A DNA stretch of 64,000 nucleotides from an uncultured Novosphingobium sp. (GTDB taxonomy: Bacteria; Pseudomonadota; Alphaproteobacteria; Sphingomonadales; Sphingomonadaceae): assembly GCA_964529505.1 (NCBI GenBank), contig CAZGWR010000014.1:1966-65965 (forward strand). Reading direction: 5' to 3'. Below the pieces are notes generated by a model that worked only from the letters and a program-made list of their open reading frames with translations, had not been told where the DNA came from and did not search any database. Made by a program: the position numbers and the translations under genes. Numbering within the stretch: position 1 is the stretch's first letter; each line of letters opens with the position of its first letter. Below, piece after piece: positions 8,397 through 59,178 of this stretch.

Positions 8397-9824
8397 ATGA
8401 CCCAAACCTCCGACACGCGCGCGCTGCTCTATCGACCCGGATTGCTTACCCCCGATGACGCGCAGCGGCTGACCGCCGCCGCGCTGGGGGCGTGCGACGA
8501 CGGCGAGCTTTATCTGCAATTCGTCGCCAGCGAGAGCTTTGGCTTTGACGACGGGCGGCTCAAAACCGCCGACTATTCGCGCGATGCCGGGTTCGGACTG
8601 CGCGGGGTTTCGGGCGAGATGACCGGCTTTGCCCATGGCAACGAGATTTCCGCCGCTGCGATCACCAGCGCGGGCGCAACCTTGCAGTTGCTCGATCCGG
8701 CGAAGAACGCGCCCGCGCCGCCGCCGCGCCAGAACAACCGGCACCTTTATACCGATGCCTCGCCGCTCGATGCGGTGCCGTTCGAGGCCAAAGTGCGCCT
8801 GCTGGAAAGCATCGATGCGGCGGCGCGCGCGCGCGATCCGCGTGTGGCGCAAGTTTCGGCCAGCCTCGCGGCCAGTTGGTCGGTGGTCGAGATCGTGCGC
8901 GCCGATGGTTTTGTGGCGCACGATGTGCGCCCGCTGGTGCGGCTCAATGTTTCGATCGTGGCCGAATCGGGCGGGCGGCGCGAGACCGGATCGTTCGGCA
9001 TGGGCGGGCGGCGGCTCTATGACGACCTGTTCGAACCCGCCACGTGGAACCGCGCGATCGACGAGGCGCTGGCGCAGGCGCTGACCAATCTGGAATCGGT
9101 GCCTGCGCCGGCGGGCGAGATGACCGTGCTGCTCGGCCCCGGCTGGCCCGGGGTGCTGCTGCACGAAGCGGTCGGCCATGGGCTCGAAGGCGATTTCAAC
9201 CGCAAGGGCACCAGCGCGTTTTCGGGGCGGATCGGCGAGCGCGTTGCGGCCCCCGGCGTCACCGTGATCGACGATGGCTCAATCCCCGGACGGCGCGGCT
9301 CGCTGACCATCGATGACGAGGGCACGCCAACGCAGGAGAACGTGCTGATCGAGGACGGCATCCTCAAGGGCTATATCCACGACCGGCTCAACGCGCGGCT
9401 GATGGGCGTTGCCCCCACCGGCAACGGGCGGCGCGAAAGCTATGCCCATGCGCCGATGCCGCGCATGACCAACACGTTCATGCGCAGCGGCAGCGATGAT
9501 CCGGCCGAGCTGCTGAGCCGGGTGAAGAACGGCATTTTCGCCAAGGCGTTCGGCGGCGGGCAGGTCGATATCACCAGCGGCAAGTTCGTTTTTTCGTGCA
9601 CCGAGGCGTACCGCGTCGAGAACGGAAAGCTGGGCGCGCCGATCAAGGGCGCGACCCTGATCGGCGACGGGCCGAGCGTGCTGACGCGGGTGCGCGGCAT
9701 CGGCAACGACATGGCGCTCGACGAAGGCGTCGGCGTGTGCGGCAAGGGCGGGCAGAGCGTGCCCGCGGGCGTGGGCCAGCCGACCCTGCTGGTGGACGGG
9801 TTGACCGTGGGCGGGACCGCCTGA
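8397..9824 (+). CDS. tldD: Metalloprotease TldD
   Basis: 475-aa ORF with the LLHEAVGHGLEGDFNRKGTSAF motif and a TldD/PmbA-type C-terminus. Confidence 0.9.
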   Translation: MTQTSDTRALLYRPGLLTPDDAQRLTAAALGACDDGELYLQFVASESFGFDDGRLKTADYSRDAGFGLRGVSGEMTGFAHGNEISAAAITSAGATLQLLDPAKNAPAPPPRQNNRHLYTDASPLDAVPFEAKVRLLESIDAAARARDPRVAQVSASLAASWSVVEIVRADGFVAHDVRPLVRLNVSIVAESGGRRETGSFGMGGRRLYDDLFEPATWNRAIDEALAQALTNLESVPAPAGEMTVLLGPGWPGVLLHEAVGHGLEGDFNRKGTSAFSGRIGERVAAPGVTVIDDGSIPGRRGSLTIDDEGTPTQENVLIEDGILKGYIHDRLNARLMGVAPTGNGRRESYAHAPMPRMTNTFMRSGSDDPAELLSRVKNGIFAKAFGGGQVDITSGKFVFSCTEAYRVENGKLGAPIKGATLIGDGPSVLTRVRGIGNDMALDEGVGVCGKGGQSVPAGVGQPTLLVDGLTVGGTA

Positions 9825-22264: not shown

Positions 22265-23758
22265 TCAATCCTCCAATTGCCGCAGCAAAGTCCGCACATC
22301 GCCGTCCATATCGGCATCGCGGGTGCGCAGTTCCTCGATCAGGCGGACGGCGTGGATCACGGTGGAGTGGTCGCGTCCGCCGAATTTGCGGCCGATCTCG
22401 GGGTATGAGCGCGGGGTGAGCACTTTGGCGAGGTACATCGCCACCTGGCGCGGGCGCACGACCGCGCGGGCGCGGCGCTTGGAGCCCATCTCGGTGCGAT
22501 CGACGCGGTAGAACTGGCAGACGGTACGCTGGATTTCGTCGATGGTGATGCGGCGGCGGTTGGCCGAGAGGATGTCGGTCAGCTGTTCTTCGGCGAGCGC
22601 GAGCGAGACCGGCTGGCCGGTGAGCTGGGCGAAGGCGATCAGTTTGTTGAGCCCGCCGACCAGCTCGCGGACATTGCGGTTGATCGTGCGCGAGAGGAAT
22701 TCGATGACTTCAGGCGGCACCTGGGTGCTGGTGAAGCGCATCAGGCGCTGTTCGAGGATCTTGCGGCGCAGCTCGATATCGGCGGGCTGGATATCCGCAA
22801 CGAGGCCCATCGAGAGGCGCGAGAGCAGGCGTTGCTCGACCCCGTCGAGCGCTTGAGGCGCGCGATCGGCGGCGACGACAAGGCGCTTGCCGGCGGTCAT
22901 CAGGGCATCGATGGTGTGGAGGAATTCTTCCTGCGTCGACGATTTGCCGATGATGAACTGGATATCATCGACCAGCAGAAGATCGAAGCCGCGCAGCCGC
23001 GCCTTGAACTCGATCATCTCGTTCGAGCGCATAGCCTGGACGAATTCGATCATGAACCGTTCGGCCGAGCAATAGAAGATCCGCGCGCCGGGCCGGGCGG
23101 CGGCATAGGCATGGCCAATGGCGTGGAGCAGGTGGGTCTTGCCCTGCCCGGTCGAGCCTTTGAGATAGAGCGGCGAGAACTGCGGCTGTTCGAGCGCGGC
23201 CATGCGCTGCGCGGCGTTGACCGCGAGCACGTTGGCGGTGCCCGAGACGAATTCGGCGAAAGTGAGCGAGGGATCAAGGCCGGTGATCGCGGCATCGGCG
23301 CTCATCGGCACGGCGGCGAGGCGCTGCGCGGCGTGGCCTGCGCCGAGATCGTTGGCGGCGATGCTGCCGAGGCGCAGTTCGGGCATGGTGCGGCGGCGCG
23401 GATGGACGGTGATGCGCACCTGGTTGACTTCGGGGCGCGCGATCTTCCACGCGAGCGACAGGCGGTCGGCAAACCGGTCCGCCACCCAGTTGGCGGAGAA
23501 CTCGGTCGGCAGGAACAGGTCGAGCGTGCCGGTCTCCTTGCAGAACGAGCCCAGTTGAATCGGCTTGATCCACTGGCTGTGCAGCTGCGGGCCGAGGTCC
23601 TTTTTCAGGCCCTGGCTGATATCCGCCCAATCGGCGGCAAGATCGAGCGCATCCTGGTCCTCGACCACCGCGCCCTCACGCGATCGTTTGCCGGGCGATA
23701 CATCGGAGTAGCTTCTGCTTGCGCCGCGGACACTGCCGCCGTTGCCGAATTCATCCAT
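22265..23758 (-). CDS. dnaA: Chromosomal replication initiator protein DnaA
   Basis: ORF 22265..23845 trimmed to MDEFGNGG. It has Walker A GSTGQGKTHLLHAIG, LLLVDDIQF, and the C-terminal DNA-binding motif RPRQVAMYLAKVLT...GGRDHSTVIHA. Confidence 0.93.
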   Translation of the reverse strand: MDEFGNGGSVRGASRSYSDVSPGKRSREGAVVEDQDALDLAADWADISQGLKKDLGPQLHSQWIKPIQLGSFCKETGTLDLFLPTEFSANWVADRFADRLSLAWKIARPEVNQVRITVHPRRRTMPELRLGSIAANDLGAGHAAQRLAAVPMSADAAITGLDPSLTFAEFVSGTANVLAVNAAQRMAALEQPQFSPLYLKGSTGQGKTHLLHAIGHAYAAARPGARIFYCSAERFMIEFVQAMRSNEMIEFKARLRGFDLLLVDDIQFIIGKSSTQEEFLHTIDALMTAGKRLVVAADRAPQALDGVEQRLLSRLSMGLVADIQPADIELRRKILEQRLMRFTSTQVPPEVIEFLSRTINRNVRELVGGLNKLIAFAQLTGQPVSLALAEEQLTDILSANRRRITIDEIQRTVCQFYRVDRTEMGSKRRARAVVRPRQVAMYLAKVLTPRSYPEIGRKFGGRDHSTVIHAVRLIEELRTRDADMDGDVRTLLRQLED

Positions 23759-24132
23759 CTTCAAGCCAATCCGCCTTGCCCCTTGCGCCCGCGACCGCAC
23801 CCGCCGCAGACAAAATCCATCCCGTCGCGAAAAGCGCGAATTCACGCCTTCAACGCACGTTTCATGCGATGTTCGAAGTACCGGCTAGAAACCGCCGCCG
23901 CTGGAACGGTGACGTCATCGTTGCTGGGAGACCATCTCTATTGGGGGATGGGATAGATTCGCAAGCTCGTGAGCGCAAAAAAACTGAAATAAATCGCCTT
24001 GACTCTGCGACACCCGCAGAAATCAAGCAAGTTATTGAAATATAAACGCTTTTACTTCCGAAGGTGCGAATCGCGTGAATTCCGTGACTTGCATCGTCCG
24101 CGCTTTGTCACACAGACCGTAACACCACTGAA

Positions 24133-34390: not shown

Positions 34391-34428
34391 GCGCCGTCCT
34401 GCTCGCACGGGCAGGTGCCGGAAACGAG

Positions 34429-34454
34429 AGAGGGCCCGTGTTGGGCCCTCTTTT
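34429..34454 (+). terminator. Rho-independent terminator of degP
   Basis: AGAGGGCCC-GTGTT-GGGCCCTCT (9-bp stem) followed by TTT. Confidence 0.75.
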
Positions 34455-34587
34455 GGATAAAGTGTTGCTCTGAAGCACGACGCCGGAATGACGGGCATCG
34501 GTGGAAAGCGATGGGGCGAACTTTGGCTCGCAAATTTCGCGTGGCGGCCCTCCGATCGTGCCACACGGCATCAGAGCCCTTTTAGTA

Positions 34588-35319
34588 TCAATTGCTAATG
34601 TTAGCGGAGCACCATATGCGGACAGCCTCGCTACTTGAACGAGCCGACATTTTAGCCATCATCTTCATCCGGTGAATCTCGACTGTCCTCGGGCTGATCT
34701 CGAGGGTCCGGGCCATTTCTTTGTTGCTTAGGCCATCAACGACCATTTCGAGCACTTGCCGTTCGCGATTGGTTAAGCACATGACGCGTTGATGCGCAGC
34801 ATCGACCTTGCTTCGGCGATCTCGGTTAGACTTTATTTTTACGGCGACGGTTTCGAGTACTTCTCGTATTCCCGTCTCGAAGATTTCGATTGGAAGGAAG
34901 TCGACAGCTCTTGCTCGCATGGCAGCGATGACATTGTCGATGGTGGGCTGATCACGATAAGCGATAACCGGCATAACTAGACGCGCATTGGCGAGCATTT
35001 CGATCACAACAGCGACACCACGCGCATCTATTGAGTCATTTACAAAAATTACCCCATCATCGGGCGCATAACTGAGAAATTCCGCGGCATTTGCGAATAT
35101 TTCGACATGGAAGCCGTTGGCGAGGATCAATCTTGCTAACTTGGCGCGGAGAGCACTGTCAGGCTCGATCAAATACACGCTAACAAGGTGGGCAGGACCA
35201 ACACCTTCTTCAGGCGCGCGGTCACCGCAAACTGCCGAAGGATGCGCGGTATGCGCCTCAAGGAAGGGCATTGCCGGATGCACTGCGGTTTTGGTTAAGG
35301 CCTGGGTGGGGCTCGACAT
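34588..35319 (-). CDS. FixJ/NarL(LuxR)-type regulator with degenerate pseudo-receiver domain (island copy 1)
   Basis: ORF 34588..35583 trimmed to the ATG at 35319, which has GGAG about 7 nt upstream. The C-terminal HTH is LTNRERQVLEMVVDGLSNKEMARTLEISPRTVEIHRMKMMAKM. The receiver-like region lacks the consensus acidic pair (IEPD), Thr (VIAYRDQ) and Lys (DFLPIE). Confidence 0.8.
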   Translation of the reverse strand: MSSPTQALTKTAVHPAMPFLEAHTAHPSAVCGDRAPEEGVGPAHLVSVYLIEPDSALRAKLARLILANGFHVEIFANAAEFLSYAPDDGVIFVNDSIDARGVAVVIEMLANARLVMPVIAYRDQPTIDNVIAAMRARAVDFLPIEIFETGIREVLETVAVKIKSNRDRRSKVDAAHQRVMCLTNRERQVLEMVVDGLSNKEMARTLEISPRTVEIHRMKMMAKMSARSSSEAVRIWCSANISN

Positions 35320-35477
35320 GTTTAACTCCAAGTAACTCTGTTTCCGACAGGAGCTTTTTGGGCTTTTGCGGTTAACCACGCAGGAAGAGTTCGTATGGGG
35401 CAATCCCTGAGTATAACTACGTGTTGCCGGTTCCAAGGCTGTCTCTCTTGGACATGCACGCAGTCGTCCCACCCCGG

Positions 35478-35508
35478 AAAAATCGCCTTTTGCGCTCGCA
35501 AGGGCGAC
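35478..35508 (-). terminator. Rho-independent terminator between the wHTH gene and pseudo-receiver gene 1
   Basis: On the minus strand, TCGCCCTT-GCGAGCGCA-AAAGGCGA is followed by TTTTT. Confidence 0.55.
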
Positions 35509-35760
35509 CCGGTGGGAGGGAGGGAAAATGGCCTGCATGGCGGTGATGCATTGGGGCGGAAACGGCCGGACAAGCGATTTCAAGCAGTGAGCAGGCCGAA
35601 AGCTGGACTCAGCCTATCATCGGACAAGTGTGGATCACCTTGACCGCGTCAGGAAGGCCGCTCGCAAGGAACGGCGCGCAGCAGCGGAAGCGCCGTACGA
35701 TCAACACCGCGCAATCCAGATTGCCCGGAAAGCGCGCCAGTGCCGCGACCTTGGAACAAT

Positions 35761-36150
35761 TCACTCAGGAACAAGTCCCGCGTCACGAAAAGCCATTCTG
35801 AGCCTTTCGCGAGCTGTGCGGGAAAGGACGAAGGAATTGGCATTCGGCCACGGTGCAACGACGATGCCCTTAGCAGCCAGCAATTTCAGATACCGCTGCA
35901 GGACATCGGGCGAGATATCCAGCGTGTCGAGAATCTGGGCAAATGACAAGGGAATGTCAGCGCCATCTTCGGCGAGCAGCAATTGAACGATTTCCCAAGC
36001 GGGATCACCAAACAGCCCGGTGCCGAAGTGTCGATTTCTTGCGCGGTAGAGGCGTTGTCCGATCAAAGCGATAGCGCGCATGATGCGGGACTCATCCAAG
36101 CGGATGATTGGGGGATCCGGCAACCCCGAAGGCGGCAATCGCTTGCCCAT
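35761..36150 (-). CDS. Small winged-helix (MarR-like) DNA-binding protein (island copy 1)
   Basis: 129-aa ORF with ...LFGDPAWEIVQLLLAEDGADIPLSFAQILDTLDISPDVLQRYLKLLAAKGIVV. It is a paralog of 37757..38221. An alternative ATG lies at 36081. Confidence 0.7.
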   Translation of the reverse strand: MGKRLPPSGLPDPPIIRLDESRIMRAIALIGQRLYRARNRHFGTGLFGDPAWEIVQLLLAEDGADIPLSFAQILDTLDISPDVLQRYLKLLAAKGIVVAPWPNANSFVLSRTARERLRMAFRDAGLVPE

Positions 36151-36690
36151 ACGCTTCCCACTTGAGCCAGCAGTTGCCCACGTCGACTATACGAATCAGG
36201 AGGAGCTCAAGGCCTTGATGTTACTGCGCTATGAATCAGGGTCAATTGAAGTTAGTTCCAATTTCGATTGGACGCGTCGGTCTTGAAAGTTTGCGCATCC
36301 TGGTTCTGCGATTGCAGCTCGCTACAATCGGCAGTCTCGTCGTCTTTCAGACCACGCGGCATCGTGCGCTCATTTTTGAGTTTGCTGGCGTCGGCCCGCG
36401 CACAGTCATCGCGAATGAAAACTCCGCGCTGGATGGCGCGAGGAATTATGCGTTGCCATTCAATTATCGATGAGGGGTGCTCGCCCTTCTGACGGTGCAC
36501 AAGATCCTAGCCTGCGCCAGCGAGCAGCCCATCTGAGGCCTTGATGCTTGGTCCATGGCTGAAGCAGTTACAAAAATCATTGAACTCCTGGTCTTCATGC
36601 TCAGGATCAGACCAGTGAAAGACTGCCGAATGATTGCAGCAACTTCGATCGAGCCAAAACTCGGATCACCGGCCCAATATGGCCCGGGTT

Positions 36691-36894
36691 TCAATTCTGG
36701 TTGGCAGTTAGGCGAGCAAGGCTCCGGGCAATCCGCGCTTCGATGTCTGACGGTGCATCGATCGAGGTCTCAAGGTAATCGCCCTGAATAGAGCAGTTGG
36801 CGCACTCCGCCTTTACAGACATATCGACCGCACCGACTTGAATCGGGGCCGCACTGTTTAAATCCTTGGCTCTATCCATGATCGGTCGGTTCAC
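36691..36894 (-). CDS. Hypothetical 67-aa protein
   Basis: GTG start with GGGAGG 8 nt upstream. VNRPIMDRAKDLNSAAPIQVGAVDMSVKAECANCSIQGDYLETSIDAPSDIEARIARSLARLTANQN. No family recognised. Confidence 0.45.
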   Translation of the reverse strand: MNRPIMDRAKDLNSAAPIQVGAVDMSVKAECANCSIQGDYLETSIDAPSDIEARIARSLARLTANQN

Positions 36895-37011
36895 GACAAC
36901 AACCTCCCATCAATGATCGCAATCGAGCCGGTCGCCTATACCTGGCCAGCACCTTTGTCAAAAGACAAGGGAGTGCATCTGCGAGACGCGTCTGTCGCGC
37001 TCGTCAGCGAG

Positions 37012-37209
37012 TTAGTTCAAAGTCGCTCCGACTTCTGAGGATTTGTCGACGCCTGGCGGCAGCCCAACCACTGTGCGCTCTTCCAGTGCGCTCTCAATGG
37101 CTTCAATTGCACGAGCCACACGGATCGCCGGCAGGTGCAATTCCTGTTGATCCAGTTCGGCAAGCACGCGCACCAATTCAACTGCTATGTCGGTCAATCG
37201 TTGAGGCAT
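37012..37209 (-). CDS. Hypothetical 65-aa helical protein (island family S, copy 1)
   Basis: ORF 37012..37272 trimmed to the ATG at 37209, with AGGA 6 nt upstream. MPQRLTDIAVELVRVLAELDQQELHLPAIRVARAIEAIESAL. It is about 37% identical over 38 aa to 38359..38550. Confidence 0.6.
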   Translation of the reverse strand: MPQRLTDIAVELVRVLAELDQQELHLPAIRVARAIEAIESALEERTVVGLPPGVDKSSEVGATLN

Positions 37210-37756
37210 TTTTTTCCTATGACCCATGTGACGCGCGCTGCGGCACTTTATGCAAGTTTCAGACCTGTTCAACTTAAATATGGGTCATGCCAAAATTGGA
37301 TAATCACATCTCAATAGCTTCTGCCGCAGCAGATGCATACGCATGGTATCGATTTTGCCAACACGTTGATATTGCCCTCAAAGCGTGACGTTTTCAGGTT
37401 GCAACTACCAATTCAATGGTACATGGCGACGCCAAATCCATAGCCTAGAACGCTGCTCTACCCCACGTTGCTACATAAGCAGCATACAAGGTCTTCGCAG
37501 CCAGAACAGCTGCCGATTTGTGTTTTGGTCCGCGCTTTACCAGCGCCCTGTGACGCCGCCTTGCTCCCAGCGAGCACTGCTTCGGGTGCCAGGCAGAAGA
37601 GACCTCGAAGTGTCAGAACAGCCGGATTATCCAGACACTCGGCGGTGAAACTTGGAAAGCTTCCCATCGCCCGTTACCCAAAAAGCGTACTTTTATCAAA
37701 ATTATGTATAGCCCACTCGTCACAAAAGTGTCTATGTTACGGTGCGTTGCGATAAC

Positions 37757-38221
37757 ATGCGGGATATCGCAAGGGGGGCCACAGTTTTGACCGACGTAGA
37801 GTCAGATCGGATCTCGGCATTTGCCTCAACGAATTTTGAACTCGGCGAGGAGGCGCCGTTTGACCACAACGGACAAGCTGATACTAGTCGAAACCGATTG
37901 TTGTTCGTTGCCCGTGCGGAAGCAGCACGACGACGTGATCGCCGGGAATTGCTCGGCGAGTTTGGTATCCTCAGTGACCCCGCCTGGGACATTTTACTCG
38001 AACTTTACATATCCGATGCAACGGGAAGCCAGATCTATGCGTCGCTGATCGGCTCCGAGACAGGAATTCCGCAATCGACCGCCCTGCGCTGGCTCGCTGT
38101 GCTCGAAAAATCCGGCCTCGTGCGCCGGCGCATCGATGTGTTTGACAAAAGACGTCAATGGGTTGGCCTGACACCACGTGCACGGACGATTTTGCAGAAG
38201 CATTTCTCTCGATCGCGCTAA
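37757..38221 (+). CDS. Small winged-helix (MarR-like) DNA-binding protein (island copy 2)
   Basis: ORF 37742..38221 (GTG), or from the ATG at 37757. ...ILSDPAWDILLELYISDATGSQIYASLIGSETGIPQSTALRWLAVLEKSGLVRRR. It is a paralog of 35761..36150. Confidence 0.7.
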   Translation: MRDIARGATVLTDVESDRISAFASTNFELGEEAPFDHNGQADTSRNRLLFVARAEAARRRDRRELLGEFGILSDPAWDILLELYISDATGSQIYASLIGSETGIPQSTALRWLAVLEKSGLVRRRIDVFDKRRQWVGLTPRARTILQKHFSRSR

Positions 38222-38358
38222 CCGTGCAAGGGGCAACGCTGCAAAGTTGCCCCCGCTATGCATCCCACGGCAATCAATGCTGGGAGAATGCCCGTTGAAG
38301 CGAGCATCTCAGAAGCAAGCAGTCTGCTTAGAAATTGTGCTTTGTCAGGCTTGGCTTC

Positions 38359-38550
38359 TTACAGATCCCCGAAACCCGGCCAGTCTCGATCGGTTGGTTT
38401 CTGGATCTGCCACGCGCGCAAATCCGCGAGCGCACTTGCTACATGCACACCTGCCAGATGCACGCCCATCGCATCGAGTTCAGCCAACATGGCTTCCAAC
38501 TCCGCGATCAAGGTAGGCAACCTGTCCTGCAAAAATCGACGCTGCTTCAC
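38359..38550 (-). CDS. Hypothetical 63-aa helical protein (island family S, copy 2)
   Basis: GTG-start ORF: MKQRRFLQDRLPTLIAELEAMLAELDAMGVHLAGVHVASALADLRAW. It shares the RL...EL...LAELD....HL...V.A.A pattern with 37012..37209. Confidence 0.55.
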   Translation of the reverse strand: MKQRRFLQDRLPTLIAELEAMLAELDAMGVHLAGVHVASALADLRAWQIQKPTDRDWPGFGDL

Positions 38551-38936
38551 TGCCTGTCTCAGTCGAAATTTCGGCCATCGGCGATGACTTCTTATGCGGT
38601 CATATAATGGTGAGACATTAAGCCAGCGTTAGCCACCGCTGGTATGCAACCCTTAACGTAGGAGCGTTCAGCGGATGCGCGCCTTGATATCTCGAGCGCG
38701 CACATATTTTCGTCATCGGCCGGAATATGGCCAGTGCAATCAGGTTCTGCTGAGATTGGTGAGCACTTCAATCGGCGACACATGGCACCTTTGGCGCGGC
38801 GGCGTTGCTGTCCACGGATCAATCACCAAATATCGAGCAGTTTCGCTCAATATTCGCCAAACTTAAGTTCTTGTTTTTGGCCCGTAGATTGCGATAGCGC
38901 TCACAGACAGTTTTAATCAAATATCTGCAGCAAGCA

Positions 38937-39551
38937 TCATGCCGCAAGATTATTATCAAGAAGAAAATAATATTTTACGACATCGGCAACGCTGCGCGCG
39001 CCTAACTTGCCCATCATTTTCATCCGATGGATCTCGACTGTTCTCGGGCTGATCTCAAGATCACGGGCAATCATTTTGTTGGTGTGCCCCAAAGCCAGGT
39101 GATCGAGCACCTGCTTTTCCCGGCAGGATAGGCAAGCGATCTTCGAACGTACTTCGGCAAAGGTCCTTCTTTTTGCGCGCTGTGCCTCGGCATCAGGGAG
39201 AACCTGATTGATCAAGGTATTGATTTCGGCCGCCGTCTGCGGAGTTGTGACATAGTCGATGGCTCCTGACTTGATGACACGCACCACGTCGGCCAAGCGC
39301 GGCTGATCACAGAAAGCAATGAGCGGCAGCCACTGGCCGTGAGAGGCCATACTGTCGATGACTTTGTTGACGTATGTTCCGTCGGCCCCGGCGTCGACCA
39401 AGCCTATTCCGCTCGTCTGCGCCGAGGAAACGAGCTCATCGACGCTGGAGTAAATCTCCGCGTGATGCTTCGCATCGAAGACAAGTCGGGCAATCCGTCC
39501 ACGCTCGGCGGCGTCGAGGGACACGATGTGGATAAGGGCGCGCGTGTTCAT
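38937..39551 (-). CDS. FixJ/NarL(LuxR)-type regulator with degenerate pseudo-receiver domain (island copy 2)
   Basis: ORF 38937..39692 trimmed to the ATG at 39551 (MNTRALIHIVSLD). The HTH is LSCREKQVLDHLALGHTNKMIARDLEISPRTVEIHRMKMMGKL. The receiver-like region lacks the acidic pair (VSLD), Thr (LIAFCDQ) and Lys (DYVTTP). The upstream 47 in-frame codons are very AT-rich and look like promoter DNA. Confidence 0.78.
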   Translation of the reverse strand: MNTRALIHIVSLDAAERGRIARLVFDAKHHAEIYSSVDELVSSAQTSGIGLVDAGADGTYVNKVIDSMASHGQWLPLIAFCDQPRLADVVRVIKSGAIDYVTTPQTAAEINTLINQVLPDAEAQRAKRRTFAEVRSKIACLSCREKQVLDHLALGHTNKMIARDLEISPRTVEIHRMKMMGKLGARSVADVVKYYFLLDNNLAA

Positions 39552-39934
39552 GCCGAAGAAATGAGCCACAAACGCAAAGTAGGCTACGATAACAAGCCCC
39601 GTCTTGAAGCGCCATTTTGGCGAAACTTCGATAAGTATATGATTTATAAATGAAATAATGTAGCCAGAGTGATTCATAATCGCGCTGGCCACCTAAGGAG
39701 TTGCACGCAGCGCTCTCACTTAGCAAAAGTTCGCATCGCTCTTTCCCTTGGTCACGGCGAAGTGCCACGCGGCGATCCAAGAAGCCTGCGGCGGGCGAAC
39801 CACGGGACGGGCGGCTAGGGGTGCCGGTTCTGTGGGTCTGTCGAAATGGGCCGACTTCGCCGCATATTGGATCGGGCGGCAAGCTGCCCCCGGCTGCGGA
39901 TTGCAGTCCGGACACTCAGACAAGGAAGACCGCG

Positions 39935-40297
39935 ATGCAGTACGTCATGCTGTTCAACGAAACTAAGTCCGAACGTGACAAGCGCGATGATCCGGTGGCT
40001 GCTGGACCTTATTGGGGCGGCTGGACTGCCTATATGGGCGCACTTGCCCAATCCGGGGCCATGGTCAGCGGCAATGGCCTGCAGCCCCCTGAGACAGGCA
40101 CTGTGCTTCGGGTTGAGAACGGCACGCGCCATGTTGCCGATGGGCCATTCGCCGATACCAAGGAGGCCCTTGGCGGCTATGTCGTGATCGAGGTGCCCGA
40201 CCTTGATGCGGCGCTGGAATGGGCGGCCAGGGCGCCTTGCGCGGTCGCCGGCTCGGTCGAGATCCGCCCCGTCATGCCGCCTCCGCCTTCCGCCTGA
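39935..40297 (+). CDS. YciI-family (DGPF-domain) protein
   Basis: Last 120 codons of ORF 39701..40297, from the ATG at 39935 with AAGGAAG upstream. MQYVMLFNE...ADGPFADTKEALGGYVVIEV. Confidence 0.85.
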   Translation: MQYVMLFNETKSERDKRDDPVAAGPYWGGWTAYMGALAQSGAMVSGNGLQPPETGTVLRVENGTRHVADGPFADTKEALGGYVVIEVPDLDAALEWAARAPCAVAGSVEIRPVMPPPPSA

Positions 40298-40300
40298 ACC

Positions 40301-41527
40301 GTGGACACCGCGCGCCATCCCGCCGCCGACATGGCCGAACGGACGGCGCGCGCGTCCTATGGGCGCCTGCTGTCGGTACTGGCCTCGCGCACCCGCGACA
40401 TCGCCGCAGCCGAGGATGCCTTGGCCGATGCCTTTGCCTCGGCAGTCACCCAGTGGCCGCGCGATGGCGTCCCCGCCAACCCCGAAGGATGGCTGATCAC
40501 GGTCGCGCGGCGCAGCATCGGCCGGCGTGCCGTTCGCGGGGGTGTGGCCGATCGAGCGGTCGAGGTCCTCATCATGCTGGAAGAGGAACGGGCTCGGGAT
40601 TCGGCTTGCCCCCTCGGGGACGAGCGTCTGGCGCTGCTGTTCGTTTGCACCCACCCGGCGATTGATCACGAGGTCCAGGCGCCGCTCATGATGCAGACGG
40701 TCCTGGGGCTCGACGCCAATCGGATCGCCGCCGCTTTTCTGGTCGGAGGGGCGACGATGGGGCAGCGTCTGGTTCGCGCCAAACGCAAGATCCGCGATGC
40801 GGGCATCGCCTTTGCCGTGCCGGATCTGGCCGAAGTCCCCGTCCGCGTCGAGGGCGTGCTCGCTGCCATCTACGCGGCTTACGGGACAGCGTGGGACGAC
40901 GTGCTGGGAGCCGATGCCAAGCTCGTCGGCCTGCGCGACGAGACCCTGTTCCTGGCTCGGCTGCTGGCCGAGCTGCTGCCGGACGAGCCCGAGGTTTTGG
41001 GGCTGCTGGCGCTGATCTTGTACTGCGAGGCCCGCCGCGATGCCAGGCGCGATGCCGCCGGAACCTTCGTTCCACTCCACGTCCAGGACCCGGGCTGCTG
41101 GTCAGGCCCCCTGATCCTTGAAGCCGAACAGGCGCTGCGGCGGGCCGCCGCACGCAATGCCCCTGGCCGCTATCAGACCGAAGCGGCCATCCAGTCGCTG
41201 CACGCCCATCAGCGGATAACCGGCGAGCGCTTCGCTGGACCGTTGGCCAAGCTCTATGACGTGCTCGCCGATCAGGCGCCCACCCTGGGCGTGCTGGTCG
41301 CGCGGGCGGTCGCCCATGCCGAAGCCGGGGCGGCCGAGGCTGGCCTGGCCCAACTCGAGGCGCTGTGCGATACCCGCGGCTATCAACCCTGGTGGGCGGC
41401 GATGGCCCGGGTGGCTTGGCTGGTTGGCGAGACAGACCGGGCGGCCAAGGCAGCGGAGGCCGCTGCGGGCCTCAGCGCCGATCCTTCCATTCGGTCCTTC
41501 CTGCTTACGGGTGGATACGCCCATTGA
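40301..41527 (+). CDS. ECF-type RNA polymerase sigma factor with long C-terminal extension (YciI-associated type)
   Basis: 408-aa GTG ORF starting 4 nt after the YciI stop. Region 2 (PEGWLITVARR) and region 4 (MGQRLVRAKRKI) are recognisable, followed by a helical C-terminal domain of about 230 aa. Confidence 0.8.
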   Translation: MDTARHPAADMAERTARASYGRLLSVLASRTRDIAAAEDALADAFASAVTQWPRDGVPANPEGWLITVARRSIGRRAVRGGVADRAVEVLIMLEEERARDSACPLGDERLALLFVCTHPAIDHEVQAPLMMQTVLGLDANRIAAAFLVGGATMGQRLVRAKRKIRDAGIAFAVPDLAEVPVRVEGVLAAIYAAYGTAWDDVLGADAKLVGLRDETLFLARLLAELLPDEPEVLGLLALILYCEARRDARRDAAGTFVPLHVQDPGCWSGPLILEAEQALRRAAARNAPGRYQTEAAIQSLHAHQRITGERFAGPLAKLYDVLADQAPTLGVLVARAVAHAEAGAAEAGLAQLEALCDTRGYQPWWAAMARVAWLVGETDRAAKAAEAAAGLSADPSIRSFLLTGGYAH

Positions 41528-41781
41528 GGTGCCCCGCATAGCATATCCCAAGCGGGCATTGATTGCCAACGACCGCTTCTGGCAAAAGTACCCGCCCCTC
41601 TGCGCGTCGTGCAGGAAAGACAGAAAAGTTCCGGAGGTCGCCATGCGAAATTGTGTGAACGCGCTTCGATGGCGAAGGTTGGGGCGACAACGGCCGTCAT
41701 GCTGCCCTGCGTTGAAAAACAGTATAAACTCTTTCGTTGTCAGGGGTGCCTGCAACGCATCGCCCGATTTGTCCCGCTTTC

Positions 41782-55603: not shown

Positions 55604-56619
55604 GCGCGGCGACGGGGCTGGCGCGCGGGTGGAGCCGGATGCGCGGGCGGGCGGCAGCGGTGCCCGGCGCGCCCGTGCTATCCGATGAGGAACGCCGCGC
55701 GCGCACCGTGATCACGCCCGAAGGGGTGCGCCTGCCCGTCACATTGGCCAGCCGGGGCGCGCGCGCCGCGGCGCTGATGATCGATCTGTTCCTGATCGGC
55801 TTCACCATGACCGCGACCACGTTCGTGCTGGTGTGGATGGCGGGCGGGATCGGCATTTCGGAGCGCGATCTGAACACCGGCACGGCGCGCGCGAGCGCGC
55901 TCCAGGCACTGGTGGTGATCTGGCTCATCGCCATGTTCCTGTTTCGCAACGCGTGGTTTCTCTCGTTCGAACTTGGCCCGCGCGGGGCGACGCCGGGCAA
56001 GCGCATGCTGGGCATCCGGGTTGCGGCGCGCGGCGGCGGGATAGGCGCTGAAGCGGGTGGGGGGCGGCTGACCACCGAGGCGGTGATCGCGCGCAATCTG
56101 ATGCGCGACATCGAGCTGTTCATGCCGCTGGTGTTCATCGGCGGCGCGATCGAGGCAGGCAGCGACACCGAACTGGCCGGATGGTCGGGCGCGGTGTGGT
56201 TTGCGGTGTTCGTGCTGTTTCCGTTTCTCAACCGGGATGCCTTGCGCTGCGGCGATGTGATCGCGGGCACCTGGGTGATCGAGGCGCCGCGCCGCAAGCT
56301 GGAGCAGGCGCTCTCGCTGGCCGCCGCCGCGCGCGGCACCAGCGCGGAAACCGGCGCGCAGTACCGCTTTGGCGAGGCGGAACTTGCGGTCTACGGCGAA
56401 TACGAACTGCAAGTGCTCGAGCGCGTGCTGCGCGACAACCGGCCCGAGGCCATGAGCGAAGTGGCCGAGATGATCTGCGCCAAGATCGGCTGGACCGGCG
56501 GCAAAGGCGATGAACGCGCCTTCCTCGAAGCCTACTACACCCAGCTGCGCGCGCGCCTCGAACAAGGCATGCGTTTTGGCCGGCGCAAGGCCAACAAGCA
56601 TACCCCGGGGGGCGGATGA
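55600..56619 (+). CDS. RDD-family membrane protein
   Basis: The ATG at 55600 overlaps the upstream stop. It has TM helices flanking R/D motifs (NLMRDIELF, LNRDALRCGDVIAGTWV) and a soluble C-terminal domain of about 100 aa. Confidence 0.75.
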   Translation: MSAATGLARGWSRMRGRAAAVPGAPVLSDEERRARTVITPEGVRLPVTLASRGARAAALMIDLFLIGFTMTATTFVLVWMAGGIGISERDLNTGTARASALQALVVIWLIAMFLFRNAWFLSFELGPRGATPGKRMLGIRVAARGGGIGAEAGGGRLTTEAVIARNLMRDIELFMPLVFIGGAIEAGSDTELAGWSGAVWFAVFVLFPFLNRDALRCGDVIAGTWVIEAPRRKLEQALSLAAAARGTSAETGAQYRFGEAELAVYGEYELQVLERVLRDNRPEAMSEVAEMICAKIGWTGGKGDERAFLEAYYTQLRARLEQGMRFGRRKANKHTPGGG

Positions 56620-57083
56620 TCGCGGGCTTGGAGATCGCGGAAGACGACCTTTCGGGCGATGACATCCGCGCGCTGGTGGCGCTGCACCTTGCCGGCATGC
56701 ATGCCGAAAGCCCCGCCGACAAAGTCCACGCCCTGCCCTTGGACAAACTGCGCCAGCCCGGTGTGACCTTCTATGCCGCGCGCGTGCACGGCGAAGTGGC
56801 GGCCATGGGCGCGATCAAACACCTCGATGAAACCCACGGCGAACTCAAATCCATGCGCGCCGCCCCGGCATGGCGGGGCAAAGGCGTGGGCGAGGCGATG
56901 CTGGTGCACTTGCTCGCGGTGGCGCGAGAGCGGGGGTATGCGCGCGTGAGTTTGGAGACGGGCCGGACCGAGGCGTTTGCGGCGGCGGCGGGGCTGTATC
57001 GCAAGTACGGCTTTGTGGAGTGCGAGGCGTTTGCGGACTATGTGGTCGATGAATTCAGCAGGTGCATGACGCTCGCGCTCTAA
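56616..57083 (+). CDS. GNAT-family N-acetyltransferase
   Basis: 155-aa ORF whose ATG overlaps the RDD stop (ATGA). WRGKGVGEAMLVHLLAVARERGY...LYRKYGF. Confidence 0.85.
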   Translation: MIAGLEIAEDDLSGDDIRALVALHLAGMHAESPADKVHALPLDKLRQPGVTFYAARVHGEVAAMGAIKHLDETHGELKSMRAAPAWRGKGVGEAMLVHLLAVARERGYARVSLETGRTEAFAAAAGLYRKYGFVECEAFADYVVDEFSRCMTLAL

Positions 57084-57165
57084 ATAATGCAGCTGGGGGA
57101 AAATGACTTTGCGTTGTTAAACCGTAATTTTTGTAGTGTGTAAATATTTCCTCACGGTCAAGTCA

Positions 57166-58077
57166 CTAACGGCTTGAACCTTTATCGACAAGCGACGGCA
57201 CTAATGTTAGTTTGGAATCGGCGTTAGGGACAATATATATTGAAGTTTCTTCATTTTCTTCTCGGACCATTACGATTCGGCCATGGAAATCACCTGTTCC
57301 AAACTCAGCCGTGGCAAAGTCGTACCCCCTGAGGTTCCCAGCGTAGCGATGGAGAGTGAGTGGGATAACTTGCTTCTGGCCAGTAAATTGAAGGCGGGCT
57401 TCCACCAGCGATACGGAATGAATCGCCCCATCATCAGCCTTCATTGTCCAACCAGGCGTTTGCATCGAAAGACGAAAGTTGCGGGTGACTCCAACTGCGG
57501 CCTCAGGATCGGGTGCTAAAGGAACGTAGGACTGCGCGATCATTGAAAGACGCTGCAGCGAAATAGAATTGCCGGACTCATCGAACAAAGCACCAACGTT
57601 GTCGGTGGGTTCACCTTCCAGAATGACTAGCAAGTCGATGGCATCGTAGAGTCGGCCATATTGGATGACCTCCCCCATTTCCAACCACGGGAATGAAGCT
57701 ATGTCCTCCAGCCCCATGCATTGTATGGAGAGGCTTTCGGCTTTTGCGCGGGCCGACTGCGTGAAGCCCGTAGATGAGACCAATACTCCGTGGTGGACGC
57801 CGGTCGCGCTGCACTTGTGCGCAAAGGCTTCAACAGCAGGCACACCGACAGGACGACTCCTATCCCTACATTCAAGCGCTGTCAGAGTGCGGTGGTGCCC
57901 TCGGTCCCAAGTGATGACGATGTCATGTTCACGTGACCTGCCAGTATCTCTGTCGCGGAGCCGTCGACAGGGAGCTTCAATCTGCACATTACCGCCTCCT
58001 CCCCACAGCGCCTTTTCAAGCGCAGCGACAATCTGCTCTAGTTGTTTCCCCGGCTTCGTCATAATTAAAGCTAACAT
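57166..58077 (-). CDS. PD-(D/E)xK (Mrr_cat-like restriction-endonuclease fold) N-terminal domain fused to an unknown ~180-aa C-terminal domain
   Basis: 303-aa ORF in a low-G+C pocket. The N-terminus is KPGKQLEQIVAALEKAL...REHDIVITW...LTALECRDRSRPVGVPAVEAFAHKC...GVLVSSTGFTQSARAKAESLSI, matching the E...D...ExK(R) core and the characteristic S-x-GFT helper motif. The C-terminal half is unrecognised. Confidence 0.65.
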   Translation of the reverse strand: MLALIMTKPGKQLEQIVAALEKALWGGGGNVQIEAPCRRLRDRDTGRSREHDIVITWDRGHHRTLTALECRDRSRPVGVPAVEAFAHKCSATGVHHGVLVSSTGFTQSARAKAESLSIQCMGLEDIASFPWLEMGEVIQYGRLYDAIDLLVILEGEPTDNVGALFDESGNSISLQRLSMIAQSYVPLAPDPEAAVGVTRNFRLSMQTPGWTMKADDGAIHSVSLVEARLQFTGQKQVIPLTLHRYAGNLRGYDFATAEFGTGDFHGRIVMVREENEETSIYIVPNADSKLTLVPSLVDKGSSR

Positions 58078-58245: not shown

Positions 58246-59178
58246 TCAAAGCGCCCCGGTCAGCTCCGGCACCAGCGTGAACAGGTCGCCGACGAGGCCG
58301 ATGTCGGCCACCTGGAAGATCGGGGCGTCTTCGTCCTTGTTGATGGCGATGATGGTCTTGCTGTCCTTCATGCCCGCGAGGTGCTGGATCGCGCCCGAGA
58401 TGCCGACCGCGATGTAGACTTGCGGCGCGACGATCTTGCCGGTCTGGCCGACCTGGTAGTCGTTGGGCACAAAGCCCGCGTCAACCGCCGCGCGGCTCGC
58501 GCCGATGCCCGCGCCCAGCTTGTCGGCGAGCGGGGTGATGACCGAAGCGAAGGTTTCGGCATCCTTGAGCGCGCGGCCGCCCGAGACGATGATCTTCGCG
58601 CTGGTGAGTTCGGGGCGCTCGCTCTTGGCGATTTCAGAGCCCACGAAAGTGCTCAGGCCCGAATCGGCATGGACGCCGACCGTTTCGATCGGGGCCGAAC
58701 CGCCGGTGGCCGCGGCCTTGGCAAAGGCGGTGCCGCGCACGGTGATGACCAGCTTGGCATCGCTCGATTCGACCGTGGCGATAGCGTTGCCGGCATAGAT
58801 CGGGCGGGTGAAAGTCTTGGGCCCTTCGACCGAAAGGATATCCGAGACCTGCATCACATCAAGCAGCGCGGCGACGCGCGGGGCGATGTTCTTGCCCGAA
58901 GTGGTGGCGGGCACAACGAACGCGTCGTAATCGGCCATCAGCCCTGCGACGAGCGGCGCGATGTTTTCGGCCAGCGCATGGGCATAGGCGGCATCGTCGG
59001 CCTTGAGCACTTTGCTCACGCCTTCGATCTGCGCTGCGGCAGCGGCGGCGCCGTCGCAGCCGGACCCGGCAACGAGCGCGGTGACTTCGCCGATCGCGGC
59101 GGCGGCAGTGACCACGGCAAGCGTGGCATCCTTGACCGAGGTGTTATCGTGCTCGACCAGAACAAGTGTCTTTGACAT
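58246..59178 (-). CDS. etfA: Electron transfer flavoprotein alpha subunit
   Basis: 310-aa ORF with [12 protein letters not shown] at the start and the FAD-binding C-terminus [33 protein letters not shown]. Confidence 0.93.

Follow-up and report, generated by a model that had tools for sequence, protein, structure and literature searches.

What kind of element is an island that consists almost entirely of paired regulator genes, and can such a set act as a unit although it includes no kinase? This question is raised by a stretch of 64,000 nucleotides (nt) from an uncultured Novosphingobium sp. (contig CAZGWR010000014.1), in the following called the window, whose coordinates are used throughout. 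At 34460-39930 the window carries a low-G+C island encoding two FixJ/NarL-type response regulators (RR1 and RR2) with degenerate receivers, two MarR-like winged-helix proteins (wH1 and wH2) and two mini-proteins (mini1 and mini2). Comparison of these proteins and of their gene neighbourhoods suggests that the island is a horizontally spread, phosphorylation-independent accessory cassette of three cooperating regulator families, found in Novosphingobium-like sphingomonads. We give this reading a probability of roughly 0.55. The kinds of components are known, the pairing of mini-protein and MarR protein and the recurrent cassette are undescribed. Literature searches found no published description of either, in agreement with an earlier annotation of the window (the original prediction), which could not assign the cassette to any described system.

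The island deviates from its host by 11 points in G+C and by 20-30 points in G+C at third codon positions (GC3; Table 1). When G+C was calculated per 400 nt, values of 0.485-0.595 were obtained over ~34400-39900 and of 0.63-0.77 in the flanks. The sharp compositional break described in the original prediction is thereby confirmed, while its estimate of roughly 50 percent G+C was slightly low (54.4% computed). Its coding density of about half was accurate: the six open reading frames (ORFs) listed there cover 2562 of 5471 nt (46.8%), and adding the ORF at 36691-36894 raises coverage to 50.6%. BLASTP showed that the six ORFs are indeed three true paralogue pairs, with 34% identity over 189 amino acids (aa) for RR1 and RR2 (E 4e-40), 28% over 53 aa, centred on DPAW-[ED]-I, for wH1 and wH2 (E 7e-5) and 39% over 41 aa for mini1 and mini2 (E 4e-7). 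ORF, Pfam and tRNA searches likewise bore out that the island contains no kinase, enzyme, integrase, transposase or tRNA gene, and no Rfam family matched within it. Since the island sequence is 100% identical in three independent Logan assemblies, in a single orientation, it is not an assembly artefact.

Table 1. Features of the island and loci with related gene sets. Coordinates refer to the window; RR, response regulator gene; wH, winged-helix gene; mini, mini-protein gene; IS, insertion sequence.
Feature or locus	Position or source	Strand	Description
Low-G+C regulator island, whole	34460-39930	no strand	54.4% G+C versus 65.7% in the remaining 64 kb window; GC3 0.56-0.63 in island ORFs versus at least 0.80 in flanking genes
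RR1	34588-35319	-	FixJ/NarL-type, aspartate-less pseudo-receiver, RR1-type clade; conserved part from ~residue 46
wH1	35761-36150	-	Divergent MarR-like protein, 129 aa (alternative 106-aa form from 36081); GDPAWEIVQLL motif
orf67	36691-36894	-	Small gene downstream of mini1; C-terminal tail RIARSLARLT[AS]N[QE]N
mini1	37012-37209	-	65-aa two-helix hairpin, island-type subgroup
mini1-wH2 intergenic region	37210-37786	no strand	Divergent; lowest G+C of the island (~0.51); presumed shared control region
wH2	37787-38221	+	Shortened MarR-family protein, 144 aa from the most likely start TTG (longer ORF from 37742 or 37757)
mini2	38359-38550	-	63-aa two-helix mini-protein, closest to core-type family
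RR2	38937-39551	-	FixJ/NarL-type, degenerate receiver, RR2-type clade, 204 aa
L001/L002	Novosphingobium sp. SL115		2 RR, 4 wH, 2 mini; plus IS
L004			1 RR, 1 wH, 1 mini; adjoins RadC
L005/L132			2 RR, 1 wH, 1 mini; order and orientation as in the window: RR2, inverted wH2, mini1-type, orf67-like, RR1
L131			2 RR, 2 wH, 1 mini
L133			2 RR, 3 wH, 3 mini; adjoins RadC
L134	Novosphingobium sp. ES2-1, conjugative plasmid p2		RR, wH, mini
L135	Strain THN1, conjugative megaplasmid pTHN		RR, wH, mini
L003	N. cyanobacteriorum		RR1-type, RR2-type and wH2-type genes; no detectable mini gene

The three gene families recur together in accessory loci

At least seven loci besides the window combine RR, winged-helix and mini genes, according to hidden Markov model scans (Table 1). 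The original prediction was to be given up if the three families did not co-occur in other genomes; they do. L001/L002, L004, L005/L132, L131 and L133 are chromosomal or metagenomic loci, and two more copies reside on conjugative plasmids. The full trio is limited to this accessory form, which is distinct from a core form located between ribH and eno (see below). G+C is lower than in the surroundings in L003 and L004, the L005 contig is low throughout, and low stretches are present in L134 and L135. A divergent arrangement of mini and wH2-type genes, as in the window, is found in L001, L005/L132, L134 and L135.

Homologous cassettes lie on conjugative plasmids (p2 and pTHN) and next to IS or RadC genes (L001/L002, L004 and L133), and horizontally spread accessory DNA is the best reading of the island. 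At the island of the window itself no integrase or transposase gene, no tRNA target and no flanking direct repeats were found. The earlier statement that the island is not a recognisable mobile element thus holds for the window copy and fails for its relatives elsewhere.

The surroundings of the related loci give a hint at the possible output. In L003/L086 the cassette is embedded among genes for a protein of >6600 aa (RTX-like), a flippase, a glycosyltransferase, a UDP-glucose dehydrogenase and a HemolysinCabind protein; in L134 (p2) it adjoins galE and genes for a sugar transferase, for polysaccharide export and for an O-antigen ligase, and L132 carries a HemolysinCabind protein.

Comparison with L005/L132 added a gene to the island that the original prediction had left out. 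The ORF orf67 has a syntenic counterpart there, with which it has a C-terminal tail of 14 residues in common. The 14 tail codons of the window and of L005/L132 differ by eight synonymous and two non-synonymous changes, a coding signature that indicates purifying selection on orf67, and the GTG start codon is preceded by GGGAGG. Judged by this signature, the island has a genuine seventh gene in orf67. A search for hidden pseudogenes in the spacers, made with tblastx against related islands and with Pfam on ten spacer ORFs, brought up only orf67; none of the ten ORFs contains a Pfam domain.

RR1 and RR2 belong to a family with a degenerate receiver

Both response regulators contain a GerE/LuxR helix-turn-helix (HTH) domain (PF00196; 72.6 bits for RR1 and 63.8 bits for RR2, cut-off 23.5). 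Their N-terminal parts are homologous to the receiver of FixJ, though the Pfam model Response_reg remains below threshold (18.3 bits versus a cut-off of 30.2 for RR1, no match for RR2). The NCBIfam FixJ model matches both proteins over the full length with 123 and 111 bits, respectively (equivalog cut-off 255), and RR2 aligns full-length to FixJ of B. japonicum (PDB 5xso, E 2e-18). In comparison to the phospho-acceptor pocket of FixJ, RR2 has SL instead of DD, retains the Asp, and has C instead of T and T instead of K. In RR1, the positions DD, D, T and K are occupied by EP, N, R and I. An intact pocket (DD, D, T/S and K) is thus present in neither protein, and a complete pocket is kept by no island copy.

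At E<=1e-10, RR2 has 526 relatives, which with few exceptions come from Novosphingobium, are 204-207 aa long and have GerE as the sole Pfam match. At the phospho-Asp position, 116 of 122 aligned family members have Q, H or E; A predominates at the T position, and V, T, M, I or L occupies the K position. As the pocket is lost across these 122 relatives, degeneracy is a property of the family and not a sign of decay of the two island copies, so that the description of both proteins as pseudo-receivers was correct. Neither the island ORFs nor the annotated flanks encode a kinase domain, and hence no cognate histidine kinase was found nearby. RR1 and RR2 therefore combine the features of the atypical-receiver class: a receiver (REC)-like fold, a degenerate pocket and the lack of a kinase partner nearby. 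To judge from these residues, the canonical phospho-switch is predicted to be unusable by RR1 and RR2, and with the pocket lost both would act without a kinase.

A neighbour-joining tree separates RR1-type, RR2-type and core-type clades, with the core-type clade as sister to the RR2-type clade. One RR1-type and one RR2-type gene each are present in five island loci (the window, L132, L131, L133 and L003), which speaks for a maintained pair. The core-type pseudo-receiver is common in Novosphingobium, where its gene stands alone amid housekeeping genes without a mini or winged-helix neighbour. RR1 shows 60% identity to its orthologues in L005/L132, and its ATG is preceded by GGAG. Inspection of the translations revealed the cyclic di-GMP motif of VpsT, W[FLM][TS]R, in neither RR1 nor RR2, and the NCBIfam CsgD model matches the HTH alone (34 and 26 bits versus a cut-off of 250).

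wH2 is a shortened MarR-family protein

wH2 matches the Pfam family MarR_2 with 30.6 bits (cut-off 27) and wH1 with 19.5 bits. The start codon of wH2 is most likely TTG 37787 and not 37757 as originally assigned, because homologues of 144 aa begin at the equivalent residue; otherwise the six predicted ORFs stand. Among 5.8 billion protein clusters wH2 has 27 close relatives, nearly all from Novosphingobium. Searching one genome per bacterial species with the family pattern [PW]AWDILL[ED]L gave at least 600 matches, 584 of which were confirmed; the best 80 loci, which were kept, are almost all from Sphingomonadales, and distant members occur in Acetobacteraceae and Azospirillum. wH1 scores 16.1 bits when it is excluded from the family profile. 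Its best non-self match has 30% identity (E 3e-9), and no closer orthologue was found among 1.84 billion representatives.

The profile of the winged-helix family matches HucR and other MarR structures in the PDB (7e-10). An AlphaFold2 (AF2) model of wH2, with a predicted local distance difference test score (pLDDT) of 79, shows a disordered N-terminus, a helix of 32 residues, a winged HTH (wHTH), the wing and one short C-terminal helix. The core of the model (H-H-H-beta-beta) gives Foldseek matches to the MarR family at probability 1.0; wH2 thus has the wHTH core of this family. The helices used for MarR dimerisation (alpha1, alpha5 and alpha6) are not recovered as a set, since past the wing the model has a single helix of 14 residues. 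Alignment of the family to HucR stops at residue 146 of 181, which indicates that the dimerisation helices alpha5 and alpha6 are missing from wH2.

An inverted repeat at 37212-37227/37280-37295, between mini1 and wH2, is the only candidate for a palindromic operator and was also considered as a hairpin sequestering the ribosome-binding site upstream of mini1. The repeat word is not enriched, and the RNA folds no better than shuffled sequences (z = -0.53); the hairpin was dropped, and as an operator the repeat has no statistical support. Promoter and terminator scans yielded no more sites than shuffles. An invertible switch was likewise rejected, since wH2 has no flanking inverted repeats and the three assemblies agree in one orientation.

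Mini genes are paired with winged-helix genes at a core locus

The mini-proteins match no Pfam family. An AF2 model of mini1 (pLDDT 82) is a two-helix hairpin with helices at residues 2-21 and 25-48. In the 5.8 billion clusters, a profile search retrieved 246 family members (41-106 aa) from Erythrobacter, Novosphingobium and relatives, all of them annotated as 'hypothetical' and none with a Pfam domain, showing that the mini-ORFs are conserved, as the original prediction required. The conserved core of the family is L..LE..L..LD..GAGIAAIHV[DN]AAI.QLR. A family profile from which the window sequences were left out gives mini2 33.5 bits (E 1.5e-12), and an identical product of 63 aa was called in other assemblies (P0164). 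mini1 is 52% and 47% identical to the syntenic ORFs of L004 and L005, respectively, and its ATG is preceded by AGGA. Fold and sequence comparisons with the PDB yielded just generic hairpins (Rop, the UvrB C-terminal domain, Spo0E-like; E > 0.8), and homology of the mini-protein to a part of the winged-helix protein was rejected (hhalign probability 0.1%).

The neighbourhood of mini genes was assessed in 84 loci, which had been retrieved solely through the similarity of their winged-helix genes. Among all stop-to-stop ORFs of these loci, a jackhmmer search that started from mini1 and mini2 converged on ~60 mini ORFs in 57 of the 84 loci. The positions of these ORFs serve as an independent check: in 46 loci the mini ORF is located closely upstream of, and on one strand with, the winged-helix gene, and the distance between the mini stop codon and the point where the winged-helix domain match begins has a median of 314 nt. 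Of the retrieved loci, about 45 have the same core context: ribBA, ribH, mini, the winged-helix gene and then eno in convergent orientation; greA and carB are close by. The G+C of these core copies differs from that of their surroundings by a median of -1.5 points. The shared ribH-eno context and the near-normal G+C indicate that the core copies are an old, vertically kept two-gene module of Sphingomonadales. Within 10 kb of them no pseudo-receiver gene was found in any of the ~45 genomes. Since the two genes are paired there without a pseudo-receiver, the conserved evolutionary partner of the mini-protein is probably the MarR-like winged-helix protein and not the pseudo-receiver, as far as gene neighbourhoods tell.

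The spacers of the core loci contain a conserved non-coding block, ACCTGCGTATT-N3-CC[CG]TAAAGCCA, which lies 20-60 nt past the mini stop codon in L010 (~9760-9800), L013, L037 and ~20 other core loci. The word TAAAGCCA was found in 20 of 43 core spacers, compared to a maximum of 6 in shuffles. This block may serve the winged-helix gene as a promoter or operator. No Rfam family matched in a core mini/winged-helix spacer, and the motif CC[CG]TAAAGCCA is absent from the island.

Comparison with known regulatory systems

Aspartate-less receiver (ALR) domains are those of atypical NarL/FixJ response regulators (PMC4395418). The SecR proteins of Aminobacter are NarL-class regulators that are kinase-independent and constitutively dimeric; SecR1 and SecR2 are paralogues encoded on the chromosome and on a plasmid, and they act on the same targets (PMC13199381). 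RR1 and RR2 resemble atypical NarL/FixJ proteins in their REC-like N-terminus, their LuxR/GerE HTH, the degenerate pocket and the missing cognate kinase, and are, by these features, new members of this known class. They differ from other atypical regulators in belonging to a FixJ-like and not an RcsB-like clade, in being essentially confined to Novosphingobium and in having no adjacent target pathway. In addition, the island form is accompanied by MarR-like and mini genes (in L003 the mini gene was undetected). As a paralogue pair, RR1 and RR2 recall SecR1/SecR2 as well as BldM-WhiI of Streptomyces, which reportedly is a heterodimer of atypical regulators. RcsA-type auxiliaries are a precedent for regulators whose output is set by a partner or by their abundance.

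By sequence, the nearest MarR branch of wH2 is that of the urate-responsive proteins HucR and MftR (PDB 5dd8, 2fbk, 8ylm and 8ylg). The wHTH core and the wing are similar, and W-D-[IL]-L-L in helix 2 aligns with GWDLLLTLY of HucR. In contrast to HucR, wH2 ends ~14 residues past the wing, without alpha5 and alpha6, and has a long Arg-rich N-terminal helix following a disordered tail. Unlike the genes for HucR and MftR, that for wH2 is paired with a gene for a two-helix mini-protein and has no efflux or catabolic gene as neighbour.

A locus of similar description is rmpADC of hypervirulent Klebsiella, an AT-rich plasmid or integrative and conjugative element (ICE) locus that encodes LuxR-type regulators without a functional receiver and a very small protein. 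Both rmpADC and RcsA-type regulators control capsule or exopolysaccharide. The rmp locus has no MarR-type gene, and RmpD acts on the Wzc polymerisation machinery and not on a transcription factor. The island is likened to rmpADC by description alone, and its link to polysaccharide is one of neighbourhood in a few relatives. The partner switch PhyR-NepR-EcfG of Alphaproteobacteria also combines a helical protein of ~60 aa, a receiver-containing regulator and an extracytoplasmic function (ECF) sigma factor, as does the neighbourhood of the island. The mini-proteins match no NepR model, however, and RR1 and RR2 carry GerE and not sigma-like domains; the adjacent sigma factor is of the DUF6596 type, belongs with a YCII gene to a separate cassette and is unlike EcfG.

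Proposed mechanism and alternative explanations

With respect to protein-protein contacts, DNA targets, silencing and physiological output, we infer the following scheme. RR1 and RR2 would be constitutive dimers, perhaps an RR1/RR2 heterodimer, and their output would depend on how strongly they are expressed or on binding of a partner or ligand. The mini-protein would bind or modulate the shortened MarR protein as a co-factor, as an antagonist or as the missing dimerisation element. The long AT-rich spacers could be control regions with the promoters and operators of a multi-promoter circuit, possibly silenced by nucleoid proteins. The targets would be located outside the island and might, by analogy with the related loci, be cell-surface polysaccharide or adhesin genes. 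AT-richness is the only basis in the island on which it might be regarded as a target of xenogeneic silencing. Silencing of AT-rich DNA by MucR is documented in other Alphaproteobacteria (PMC9410896) and is not known from Sphingomonadales. A bolder version of this scheme, which we consider unlikely, is a 'split MarR' in which the 45-residue hairpin of the mini-protein supplies or gates the dimer surface of the winged-helix protein, so that both would be subunits of one hitherto unrecognised transcription factor. The pair would be a core regulator of Sphingomonadales at the ribH-eno locus, and its accessory copies, together with an RR1/RR2 heterodimer, would make up a mobile, kinase-free circuit for surface-polysaccharide or adhesin genes that is spread by plasmids and islands.

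Several observations weigh against a cassette of three cooperating families. mini1 is not matched by a profile of core-type members alone and joins the family via mini2 and intermediates. wH1, which lacks orthologues, may be decaying. Repeat, enrichment and motif scans defined no operator motif in the island spacers. Surface-polysaccharide or other plausible target genes are absent from the 64 kb window, where the flanks are made up of housekeeping genes, and the association with polysaccharide clusters is seen in two or three lineages only. The gene order of the cassette is shuffled among loci while the content is kept, which fits a functional link and not a fixed operon logic. Finally, the mini gene also adjoins an RR2-type gene in four loci (the window, L004, L131 and L133), so that a contact between mini-protein and response regulator may still occur.

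This last arrangement agrees with the mechanism proposed in the original prediction, a self-contained switch in which a partner protein (here taken to be the mini-protein), and not phosphorylation, controls the pseudo-receivers by binding, as in a partner-switch. The degenerate receivers and the absence of a kinase would suit such a switch, and receiver domains can be targets of small helical hairpins; the Foldseek neighbours of the mini-protein include folds like that of Spo0E, none of them significant. Yet similarity to known receiver-binding proteins was never significant in sequence or fold, the abundant core-type pseudo-receiver of Novosphingobium has neither mini nor winged-helix neighbour, and the ~45 genomes described above pair mini with the winged-helix gene and have no pseudo-receiver nearby. 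The proposed partnership is thus probably wrong, and we regard the partner-switch as distinctly improbable. Still less probable, in our estimate, is that the island paralogues form mixed complexes with copies encoded in the host core, i.e., the ribH-eno pair and the core pseudo-receiver, and would thereby rewire or titrate them. Such complexes are suggested by the conserved Sphingomonadales core counterpart of each island family, by the sister relationship of the RR2-type and core-type clades, and by the common targets documented for the chromosomal and plasmid SecR paralogues; core copies, if this strain has them, would lie outside the 64 kb window.

Another possibility is that the island is a stranded and largely inert remnant of a plasmid or ICE, which has lost its cargo (for instance a polysaccharide cluster) and whose genes are silenced or drifting. 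Its atypical composition, the homologous cassettes that are carried by conjugative plasmids or adjoin IS or RadC genes, the position of the window copy apart from any cargo, the orphan state of wH1 and the large non-coding portion (half of the island) all fit this explanation. But the seven ORFs are all intact; RR1, RR2, wH2 and the mini-proteins retain the residues conserved in their families and are 47-60% identical to syntenic orthologues; the tail of orf67 is under purifying selection; and the island contains neither pseudogene fragments in its spacers nor integrase, att or IS scars. Inertness of the island therefore appears unlikely to us.

Three uncharacterised and well-populated regulator families of Sphingomonadales are herewith defined and shown to travel together. 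In dozens of genera the gene for the mini-protein, which has no Pfam family, forms a strict pair with that for a shortened MarR protein at a housekeeping locus, and this leads to a concrete, testable hypothesis about a protein-protein contact. The pseudo-receivers provide a large, taxon-specific example for the expanding group of kinase-independent response regulators. Should plasmid-borne exopolysaccharide or adhesin clusters be under the control of the cassette, this would matter for biofilm formation and aggregation of Novosphingobium strains used in bioremediation. Even if inert in the window strain, it would be a clear case of regulatory cargo stranded near a replication origin.

Neighbouring genes and further observations

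The left edge of the island is formed by degP, followed by a hairpin, GAGAGGGCCC-GTGTT-GGGCCCTC, and TTTT at 34428-34456. Further genes in the left flank are dnaA, the ferrochelatase gene hemH, and genes for an Mrp/NBP35-type ATPase and two Band_7 proteins (hflKC-like). The dnaA gene (22265-23845, minus strand) is only ~11 kb away, placing the island near the presumed replication origin region. On the right side, the YCII gene starts at 39935 and the ECF sigma gene (DUF6596 domain) at 40301, and genes for a class A penicillin-binding protein, a SelR protein (msrB-like) and NfeD/Band_7 proteins are located in the flank.

We used the ECF sigma gene to search for an empty site, which brought up no relative that bears on the question. 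The nearest metagenome relative (sigma factor 89% identical) has only 39836-41628, in another context. This plus-strand segment with YCII and sigma genes is the sole segment that the window has in common with L092/L127 (84% nt identity). Since the pair occurs without the island in a close relative, it looks like a separate two-gene cassette outside the low-G+C island.

A role in anti-phage defence was considered and dropped, as PADLOC yields just generic HTH matches to CARF/Csa3 models. A gene for a PPP-type Ser/Thr phosphatase-like Metallophos protein (254 aa, 45% identity) borders the cassette in L001 (2364-3128) and L003 (19191-19955). It was rejected as a conserved neighbour because it is found in just these two and not in the other island loci, and the Metallophos gene of the window is unrelated. 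Beside the cassette in L003 (1-6596) and L086 (2-3703), the giant ORF is accompanied by a set of acyl-carrier, AMP-ligase, short-chain dehydrogenase/reductase and hexapeptide-transferase genes, which may be an adhesin-modification cluster. Beside their cassettes, L004 (12436-14579) and L133 (12586-14771) have a conserved block in common, made up of a wHTH-like gene of 112-120 aa, RadC, two small genes and a gene for a short protein of 171-177 aa whose only domain is GerE. On sphingomonad plasmids, several matches of the winged-helix query fall under annotations as 'JAB domain-containing protein'. Both findings suggest a winged-helix/RadC module borne on a plasmid or ICE. Elsewhere in the window, between two ORFs without annotation here (155 aa, 56616-57083; 310 aa, 58246-59178), lies a second low-G+C islet (57001-58000, G+C 0.524) with a single 303-aa gene (57166-58077, minus strand) that encodes an Mrr_cat restriction-endonuclease domain.

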